Source: Anaerolineaceae bacterium
Lineage (GTDB): Bacteria; Chloroflexota; Anaerolineae; 4572-78
NCBI GenBank assembly: GCA_024762375.1
Contig: JANTHQ010000001.1
Span: 1-28,538 of the forward strand
DNA length: 28,538 nucleotides
Direction: 5' to 3'
Numbering within the stretch: position 1 is the stretch's first letter; every line of letters starts with the position of its first letter. A program made the position numbers and the translations under genes. Of the stretch, positions 3,109-5,196 are shown piece after piece. The notes beneath the pieces were generated by a model, which saw nothing but the letters and a program-made list of their open reading frames with translations, searched no databases and was not told the origin of the DNA.

Positions 3109-5196
3109 ATGGAACAATTATTTTCACTCACGCCCCTCATTCCGGTATTTCCACTACTGGCATTTGCCATCATCGTGCTGTGGGCGAACAAAAGCAACAA
3201 ACTGAGCGCGGGGCTGGCTATTGCCGGTATCGCCACTTCGGCAGTCATTTCGTGGCTGGTCATTTTTGCCACACTCGCCGGCGGACACCACGTCCAAGTC
3301 GAAGGGTGGTCGTTGCCGGTGCCGTGGCTGCCCACCGGAACCACCGTGTTCAACCTCGGTTTTGCAGTAGACGGCTTTACCGCCGCGATGCTGTTTATGG
3401 TTCCCATCGTTTCCTCACTCATCTTCATTTATGCATCAGAGTACATGGAAGGTGACCCGCGATACGCCCGCTTTTTCGCCTACGTTTCGCTCTTCGTCTT
3501 CGGGATGCTCACGCTGGTTGTCGCCGATAACCTGCTGCTACTGTTCATCTCGTGGGAAATTATGGGGCTCTGTTCGTACCTGCTCATCGGGTTCTGGTTC
3601 GAAAAAGACAGCGCCAAAAAAGCCGGTTTGAAAGCATTTTTAACCACCCGCATCGGCGATGTTTTGCTGTTTGCCGGGATGCTTTTCCTGTACAGCAAAA
3701 CCGGCACGCTCACCTTCCGCCAAATTTTTGAACCGGAAGTACTGCACGAATTGGCAAACGCCACCATTTGGGGGATGCCCGCTTCCGTCCTCATCTCACT
3801 GCTGATTTTCGGCGGCGCGGTGGGCAAAAGCGCGCAGTTCCCGCTGCACGTGTGGCTGCCCGATGCGATGGAAGGCCCCACCCCCGTTTCTGCGATGATC
3901 CACGCGGCGACGATGGTTTCCGCCGGGGTGTATCTGGTTGCCCGGATGCTGCCGCTTTTCGCGGTGGTTCCCGTTGGCGCGCTGCAATGGGTGGCTATCA
4001 TCGGCGCAATTACCGCCTTCTTCGGCGCTACCATCGGCATCGCCCAAAACGACATCAAACGGGTGCTCGCCTATTCCACCATCAGCCAGTTGGGCTATAT
4101 GATGATTGGTTTGGGATTGGGCGGTTTTTTGGCGGGGATTTTCCACCTGCTGACCCACTCGTTCTTTAAAGCCCTGCTCTTCCTCGGCTCCGGCTCGGTC
4201 ATCCACGCGATGGAACACGGCGCACACCACGTCGGCGACCATCACACCGACCCGCAAGATATGATGAATATGGGCGGGCTGGCAAAACGGATGCAAAAAA
4301 CCTATATCGCCTATATGGCGGGCACACTGGCGTTGGTTGGCATCGTACCCTTTGCCGGATTCTTCAGTAAAGATGAAATTCTGGCAGATGCATGGCACAA
4401 AGCCGGTGGATTTAATTTTGGCAGCGTGGCGTTTTGGGCATGGCTCGCCGGCACGCTGGGCGCATTTGTCACCGCGCTGTATATGGGGCGGCAAATCGGG
4501 CTGGTATTTTTGGGAAAACCCCGCACCGGACTTTCGGAGCACGCGGTGGAACCGGGTAAACGGATGACCTACCCCCTGCTGGTGCTGGGTTTCTTTGCCC
4601 TGATTCTCGGTTTTGCCAACGTGCCGGAAAATGTGCCGCTGATTGGCAATGGCTGGCTGCATCATTTCGCCGGGATGATTCACGAAAGTGCAGGCGTGCT
4701 CGATTTAGAAGCGCTGCCGCTCAACTGGGGGTTGGCGGCTGTCGCCACACTCATCGGCCTGACCGGCTTTCTCGGTGGTATCGCGCTTTATCGCGGCCAG
4801 CAAGCCGGGCAAGAAGACCCGATGGTCAAACTTTTGGGGCGGCCACTATTCACCCTGTTGAAAAACAAATATTATGTGGATGAATTCTACTTTGCCGTCA
4901 TCATCAACCCGGTTATAAAACTGGCAGACCTCGCCGCCAAATTCGACTACGATTGGGTTATTAATCCCATCGTGAACTTTGTCGGCAATACTGGGCGCTG
5001 GCTCGCCGACGTGAGCGCGGAATTTGACCGCGTGGTCGTAGACGGCTTGGGCGTGCTCGGAACAGCGCGTTTCTTCAAATGGATGGGGAAAGAATTGCGC
5101 TATACCCAAACCGGACAAGCCCAAAACTATCTTCTGGTAATCGCCCTGGTGTCACTATCGCTGGTTGGCGTGTATCTGTTTGGCGTTGGATTTTAA
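3109..5196 (+). CDS. nuoL: NADH-quinone oxidoreductase subunit L (extended lateral helix)
   Basis: SWEIMGLCSYLLIGFW, GKSAQFPLHVWLPDAMEGPTPVSAMIHAATMV, FFSKD, and a C-terminal KYYVDE...QTG helix region. Confidence 0.97.
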   Translation: MEQLFSLTPLIPVFPLLAFAIIVLWANKSNKLSAGLAIAGIATSAVISWLVIFATLAGGHHVQVEGWSLPVPWLPTGTTVFNLGFAVDGFTAAMLFMVPIVSSLIFIYASEYMEGDPRYARFFAYVSLFVFGMLTLVVADNLLLLFISWEIMGLCSYLLIGFWFEKDSAKKAGLKAFLTTRIGDVLLFAGMLFLYSKTGTLTFRQIFEPEVLHELANATIWGMPASVLISLLIFGGAVGKSAQFPLHVWLPDAMEGPTPVSAMIHAATMVSAGVYLVARMLPLFAVVPVGALQWVAIIGAITAFFGATIGIAQNDIKRVLAYSTISQLGYMMIGLGLGGFLAGIFHLLTHSFFKALLFLGSGSVIHAMEHGAHHVGDHHTDPQDMMNMGGLAKRMQKTYIAYMAGTLALVGIVPFAGFFSKDEILADAWHKAGGFNFGSVAFWAWLAGTLGAFVTALYMGRQIGLVFLGKPRTGLSEHAVEPGKRMTYPLLVLGFFALILGFANVPENVPLIGNGWLHHFAGMIHESAGVLDLEALPLNWGLAAVATLIGLTGFLGGIALYRGQQAGQEDPMVKLLGRPLFTLLKNKYYVDEFYFAVIINPVIKLADLAAKFDYDWVINPIVNFVGNTGRWLADVSAEFDRVVVDGLGVLGTARFFKWMGKELRYTQTGQAQNYLLVIALVSLSLVGVYLFGVGF

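Follow-up and report, generated by a model that had tools for sequence, protein, structure and literature searches.

The NuoL subunit encoded in the window (the whole stretch of DNA analysed here, 28,538 nucleotides of an Anaerolineaceae genome) carries a lateral helix (HL) in which a 27-residue module is present twice in tandem, and the membrane-arm operon of complex I to which it belongs encodes a single NuoM. The locus is thus an ordinary member of a known one-M, long-helix kind of nuo cluster. A hidden pump cannot be read off the length of the helix by itself, and we give an even chance to the reading that the enzyme has three pumps, a stoichiometry we infer, together with an old and conserved extra strap module.

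The nuo genes of the window were identified with NCBIfam models (Table 1) and follow the order nuoA-H-J-K-L-M-N; nuoL lies between nuoK and nuoM and scores above the curated cut-offs of the NuoL models NF005141 and TIGR01974, and no nuoB, C, D or I is present between nuoA and nuoH. Translation of nuoM probably starts at the ATG at 5254, not at 5236. The window NuoH is about 80 aa longer than the canonical subunit and its C-terminal extension is hydrophobic; when the window gene (977-2242) is set beside loci L030, L076, L077 and L078, the NuoH of long-helix clusters, one-M and 2M (two-nuoM) alike, measures about 396-446 aa versus 326-336 aa in canonical clusters, i.e., about 60-110 aa more. A role of this extension as compensation for a missing M is ruled out, as 2M clusters carry it too. 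On the plus strand 3' of nuoN lie a family-3 O-methyltransferase gene (8470-9057) and a metalloenzyme-superfamily gene (9061-9972); both products look soluble, and 10-11 loci of the order have the two genes in the same place. Among the loci of the order no conserved membrane-protein gene follows nuoN, the conserved neighbours being soluble, which rules out an extra membrane subunit encoded at this place.

Table 1. Features of the long-helix nuo operon in the window and of the related nuo genes on other contigs of the same genome
Feature	Position	Strand	Basis or remark
nuoA	559..915	+	NF005839 NuoA, E 6.7e-44
nuoH, 421 aa	977..2242	+	NuoH models, E ~1e-103
nuoJ	2262..2774	+	NF005163/NF005168 NuoJ
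nuoK	2774..3088	+	NF004322 NuoK, E 6.9e-37
nuoL, 695 aa (P0001)	3109..5196	+	NF005141 628 bits (cut-off 556); TIGR01974 602 bits (cut-off 407.5)
HL span YYVD..QTG, 82 aa, residues 588-669	4870..5115	+	sequence; AF2 helices 587-616 and 618-666
HL module A, residues 604-630	4918..4998	+	motif KFDYDWVINPIVNFVG nearly invariant across the order
HL module B, residues 631-657	4999..5079	+	copy nearest to the single canonical module (FDxxVVDG)
TM16, C-terminal anchor helix of NuoL, residues 671-693	5119..5187	+	AF2 secondary structure
nuoM, sole copy in operon	5236..6780	+	TIGR01972 548.7 bits, cut-off 263.8
nuoN	6820..8361	+	TIGR01770 382 bits, cut-off 332.6
Canonical cluster pieces	C383 1-3162, C456 1-2618		loci L002, L003, L006, L007
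Fused NuoB-C-D frame (826-aa open frame), then NuoI-like gene	C118, L180: 754-3231 and 74-901	-	

An earlier note on this DNA had described the stretch from YYVD to QTG as 82 aa long, with an internal repeat at an offset of 27-28 residues, and had put the canonical span at about 53-56 aa; length and placement prove exact, the repeat resolves into two units at an offset of 27, and 48 one-module NuoLs, the second NuoL of this genome among them (56), all give a canonical span of 54-57 aa. The surplus of the window NuoL is thus about 27 residues, and across the NuoLs collected the span is quantised, taking values of 54-57, 80-85, 103-116 or 133 aa. Within the one sequence the repeat is weak: modules A and B are identical at 8 of 27 positions (ungapped BLOSUM62 score 11), and a 20-aa shuffle test on the window NuoL alone chooses a different diagonal (offset 19, with 7 of 500 shuffles as good). 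The surplus is nonetheless an in-register tandem copy of a 27-aa "FDxxVxDGxVN(xxG)" module, because profiles of the two units, drawn from 60 distinct relatives with the same 82-aa span, pair in register over positions 1-24 of each (hhalign P = 3.2e-4), because phmmer matches residues 611-617 of the cyanobacterial NdhF1 chain (6hum_F) twice, once per unit, and because the NuoLs of relatives contain clearer or nearly identical tandem units. D613 of module A and D640 of module B are each conserved in at least 90% of 108 sequences. As HL is fixed at 82 aa in the window's order and module A is nearly invariant there, the helix is under selection and not decaying.

The AF2 model of NuoL (mean pLDDT 90.2) displays an antiporter-like core followed by TM15, the lateral amphipathic helix and TM16, with HL predicted as a continuous, extended element at a pLDDT of about 66-82. 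Looping out of the extra residues, which the earlier note had named as evidence that would count against its four-pump reading, is not what AF2 predicts, nor is a hairpin, in this model of the monomer as opposed to the assembled complex; in a four-module NuoL the extra modules are likewise modelled as helical, at a pLDDT of 32-59, too low to be informative. The model matches solved NuoL/ND5 chains with Z scores of about 50 (rmsd of 2.1 Å to E. coli over model residues 5-612). No alignment to the solved NuoL chains reaches TM16 of the model and no solved chain superposes there, so the predicted anchor is set beyond its canonical position. The hydrophobic moment delimits three amphipathic segments (599-611, 617-647 and 653-662) separated by phase jumps at 614-617 and 648-651; these jumps point to an extra module that would add one amphipathic helix of about 30 aa flanked by two hinges.

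Insertions in HL reportedly accompany a fourth pumping subunit, a second NuoM, in 2M complexes, including those of Chloroflexi. The features of 2M complex I (Chadwick et al. 2018) are used here as relayed in PMC7117926, PMC8004040 and PMC6606698, and in the Chloroflexi 2M layout quoted in PMC7117926 nuoBCDI, with a fused CD, lies apart from the membrane-arm operon. The window shares with Chloroflexota 2M clusters of the Anaerolinea or Chloroflexus type a one-module insertion in HL (about 26-27 aa) and an A-H-J-K-L-M(-M)-N layout with nuoB, fused CD and nuoI elsewhere; the absence of NuoEFG from the cluster, the long NuoH and the position of NuoL in the same starred clade are also common to both. 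Unlike them, the window has one nuoM, no orthologue of the second gene (Mb), and an M and an N of its own that fall in separate one-M clades. It therefore combines the HL insertion of about 26 aa and the split nuoBCDI with fused CD of 2M clusters with only one of their two nuoM genes, and its two-module HL and single nuoM followed by nuoN are those of a one-M, long-helix cluster. The kind is known: one-M clusters with an HL insertion were already noted in passing for Ca. Manganitrophaceae (PMC9040806), whose Complex_I_1 and Complex_I_2 carry the insertion in a cluster for which an extra pump subunit is not described; the accommodation of an extra pump and an evolutionary transition were both left as options by those authors. 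Ca. Manganitrophaceae belong to a different phylum (Nitrospirota), and the likeness to the window, an insertion of 2M size with one nuoM, is drawn from their description. In comparison, the solved NuoL/Nqo12/ND5 chains of E. coli (3rko/7z7s), T. thermophilus (4he8) and M. smegmatis (8e9g) share with the window NuoL the 14-helix antiporter core, TM15, the lateral helix and TM16; they have one module, as does every complex I structure solved, whereas the window NuoL has two, and no solved structure matches the two-module region by sequence.

That the operon has a single nuoM, as first noticed from the sequence, is upheld by the NCBIfam matches and by independent assemblies. Logan contigs from three hydrothermal-vent metagenome runs, covering the end of nuoL and the whole of nuoM and nuoN, cross 4270-8958, 4801-9000 and 4270-8303 unbroken and at the depth of the flanks, which rules out a tandem nuoM collapsed by assembly. 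The source genome (G000), a MAG of 477 contigs with a completeness of 67%, contains a further nuo cluster of the canonical type, of which C383 carries a normal-length NuoL and the first part of NuoM, and C456 the remainder of NuoM and NuoN; the ends of the two contigs share a 451-nt overlap (98% identity) that on sequence grounds makes them one canonical L-M-N cluster, and strain variation is suggested to have broken the assembly between them. The orphan nuoM that the earlier note had proposed to look for is not found in this 67% complete genome, where the only other M sits in the canonical cluster. NuoF adjoins the canonical cluster's NuoCD on C32. The fused NuoB-C-D frame on C118 and the NuoI-like gene beside it, with two [4Fe-4S] sites, probably serve the window's membrane-arm operon as its quinone module; no NuoEFG adjoins them, and the window-type enzyme is without a NuoEFG of its own. 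C184 of the same genome encodes a hydrogenase-4 subunit F-like antiporter subunit (L008: 916-2475, minus strand), suggesting a membrane-bound hydrogenase or a formate hydrogenlyase-type complex.

A long NuoL C-terminus is present in 46 of the 56 genomes of the window's order, and every one of the 19 complete loci fetched from it reads J-K-L-M-N with an HL of 81-82 aa. The near-complete genomes of the order have exactly two NuoM, one per cluster; in G045 and G055 there are no antiporter-like genes beyond two sets of L, M and N, and the genomes of the order contain no orphan third nuoM, except that G022 and G032 each have a third copy. Elsewhere in the Chloroflexota, true 2M clusters (L-Ma-Mb-N) always have an HL of 80-84 aa, and further one-M clusters with a two-module HL are found. 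The canonical-type NuoL of Anaerolineaceae presents an unrelated helix of 84-85 aa, with a different insert (WRFWHDWFH...) and one nuoM; this independent helix occurs at L040, L042, L045, L047, L066, L070 and L112, and the genomes concerned have a 2M cluster as well. A contig scan across genomes of many phyla (80 loci) finds one-M, two-module clusters in Zixibacteria, Planctomycetota, Binatia, NC10, Ignavibacteriota, Verrucomicrobiota and Acidobacteriota, including a cultured one-M, long-helix organism, a Melioribacter isolate of the Ignavibacteriota (L125), and 2M clusters in Nitrospira, Acidobacteriaceae and Verrucomicrobiota.

A class-wide search, whose tally took in one unpublished genome (G766) that underlies none of the individual claims, adds many three-module NuoLs and one with four modules, and 19 of the 20 loci fetched from it have one nuoM followed by nuoN. 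These loci, L080-L099 (e.g., L098 = G477:C50, L086 = G459:C17 and L081 = G551:C33), have three or four modules and spans of 103-116 and 133 aa; L081 combines three modules with two nuoM, and the contig of another three-module protein (P0052) stops just after nuoL. Some tandem units of these NuoLs are near-identical, recent copies, and the number of modules is therefore still changing. Modules and nuoM genes were tallied over 160 loci which, having been picked by similarity, do not give natural frequencies: one nuoM accompanies one module in 38 loci, two modules in 47, three in 17 and four in 1, and two nuoM accompany two modules in 35 loci, three in 1, and one or four in none. The association of the HL insertion with 2M complexes, on which the earlier note had relied, thus stands in one direction, all 36 two-M loci having at least two modules, and fails in the other, since 65 of the 101 scored loci with at least two modules have one nuoM. 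A helix length common in single-M clusters, named beforehand as an observation that would speak against a hidden pump, is at the gene level what is found. Near-complete genomes sharpen the point. G277 (99% complete, 1.0 Mb) has a two-module HL and one L-M-N set, its other such genes being only Mrp genes, with no second NuoM and no NuoF; G459 (96% complete) has a three-module HL and only three PF00361 genes genome-wide, i.e., one L, M and N; and in G050 (95% complete) only the long-type M is seen. G427, which lacks a canonical cluster and has a one-M, long-helix one, carries an orphan NuoN-like gene far from any nuo cluster (L073:5363-7030, minus strand, on G427:C4; TIGR01770 389 bits).

The order of events can be approached through phylogeny. 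In a rooted IQ-TREE tree of 65 NuoL cores, from which the helix columns were excluded, the window NuoL and the Chloroflexota 2M NuoLs fall in a 37-row clade (starred support of 100/98) whose first branches, L058 and L056, are one-M, two-module lineages; its sister groups, from Ignavibacteriota, Planctomycetota and Zixibacteria, are also one-M and two-module. L056 has a 2M clade of Verrucomicrobiota/Acidobacteriota as its sister, the long-type NuoLs of Anaerolineae as a whole have the 2M clade of Chloroflexia as theirs, and the 2M clade of Anaerolineae (starred 100/98) sits within one-M lineages whose modules number two to four. In the M tree, Mb is monophyletic across the two Chloroflexota 2M lineages (starred 100) and sister to canonical-type M (starred 98), and the window M is placed, at a support of 86, with those of other one-M, long-helix clusters; in the N tree, the N of these clusters form one clade (starred 99). 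Both M and N of the window group with those of the basal lineages L056 and L058, and the deepest branching of these two trees, not being settled, does not tell gain from loss. On the NuoL, M and N trees as a whole, a second nuoM was most likely gained after the helix had lengthened, and the older state would be the one kept in the window. A two-module HL with a single nuoM is the normal, and probably also the ancestral, state of a large bacterial NuoL lineage.

The doubled docking module is old and inherited across the large NuoL clade, and the window operon with the nuoBCD and nuoI genes of C118 is a one-M type, sister to the 2M clusters of Chloroflexota. On the three-pump reading, the three antiporter-like subunits encoded would most likely make three pumps, and the extra amphipathic segment (approximately residues 617-647, with hinges at the INP and DGLGVLG motifs) would serve as a further element for strapping or docking; the lengthening of the helix probably preceded the recruitment of a second nuoM in some lineages and made it possible. 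In favour of this reading, one nuoM is the majority state among long helices, module number varies freely while gene content stays constant, and the near-complete G277 and G459 offer no second M. Energetics point the same way. Menaquinone has a redox potential of about -74 mV and NADH of -320 mV, and from these standard potentials five or six pumps would be energetically implausible with menaquinone; as modules also vary in number beside one nuoM, extra modules would seem tolerable without extra pumps. Against the three-pump reading, a module, at about 40 Å, is roughly as long as one antiporter-like subunit is wide, all two-M clusters carry at least two of them, D613 and D640 are both kept with the length held at 82 aa, and AF2 predicts a continuous extended helix with TM16 beyond its canonical position. 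In E. coli, the insertion of 6-7 residues in the lateral helix between L and M lowers pumping efficiency (PMC3274701), and given this effect the 27 residues in surplus over a three-pump arm call for a structural explanation.

The correspondence between module and subunit width raises the question as to whether NuoM is built in twice (L-M-M-N), giving a four-pump complex from three genes in which helix length is a ruler of M copies; we consider this unlikely. In its broader form, where HL is a molecular ruler and either the operon's own NuoM or that of the canonical cluster occupies two adjacent slots of a four-pump, five-proton enzyme with three pump genes, the proposal is doubtful. Two-M clusters occur only on backgrounds of at least two modules and branch from within one-M lineages, a pattern to be expected had a homomeric pair subsequently been split between two genes; the putative docking aspartates are both conserved, G277 and G459 hold no other candidate subunit, and an enzyme without NuoEFG of its own, if fed by a low-potential donor such as ferredoxin, would afford a fifth proton, a comparable proposal having been made for 2M complexes (PMC6606698). 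The same logic applied to one-M relatives with three or four modules, however, would require three or four copies of M, hence five or six pumps and six or seven protons per cycle. L081, with three modules and two M genes, indicates that gene number never tracks module number, and the Chloroflexota Mb, whose sister is canonical-type M, did not arise by tandem copying of the first M.

That the window is a relic of a 2M ancestor which lost its second nuoM and kept the long helix, another option raised at the outset, is disfavoured and appears quite unlikely. The monophyly of Mb in the two Chloroflexota 2M lineages and the sister position of the Chloroflexia 2M NuoL to all Anaerolineae long-type NuoLs leave room for a 2M ancestor of the Chloroflexota clade, but the NuoL tree would then demand many independent losses; other classes and phyla supply one-M, two-module lineages that branch basal to the 2M clades, the window M and N group with the basal one-M lineages, and a helix so strongly conserved in length and sequence is unlike one in decay. 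Very unlikely, in turn, is an extra module that binds a partner other than an antiporter-like subunit, such as an unrecognised small membrane subunit or a partner complex, or that carries TM16 past NuoN to NuoJ/K/A/H. The divergence of module A to a nearly invariant motif specific to the order and the long NuoH of long-helix clusters would fit such a partner; on the other side, no conserved membrane gene adjoins the operon, the NuoH extension is present in 2M clusters as well, and a strap of three or four modules would extend past the entire membrane arm. Finally, a fourth slot filled in trans by the NuoM of the canonical cluster, also suggested in the earlier note, is conceivable for G000 because that cluster exists there, and it accords with the two NuoM, one per cluster, of most genomes of the order and with an Mb that groups with canonical-type M as if a canonical M had been recruited, but it is most improbable and is not a general answer, because G277 and G459 combine long helices with no second NuoM, G050 shows the long-type M alone, and the canonical M is already partnered by its own L and N.

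The three-pump reading poses a structural question, namely what sits beneath the extra 40 Å of strap helix; if the ruler reading were true instead, the separate nuoM genes of 2M clusters would be later specialisations of a state such as that of the window. Genome papers use the lengthened NuoL helix as a signature of a four-pump complex I. Across the loci compared, this signature is necessary and not sufficient: two nuoM genes are found only with a long helix, and a long helix is more often found with one nuoM, a point that counts when the energy yield of uncultured bacteria is predicted from their genomes.
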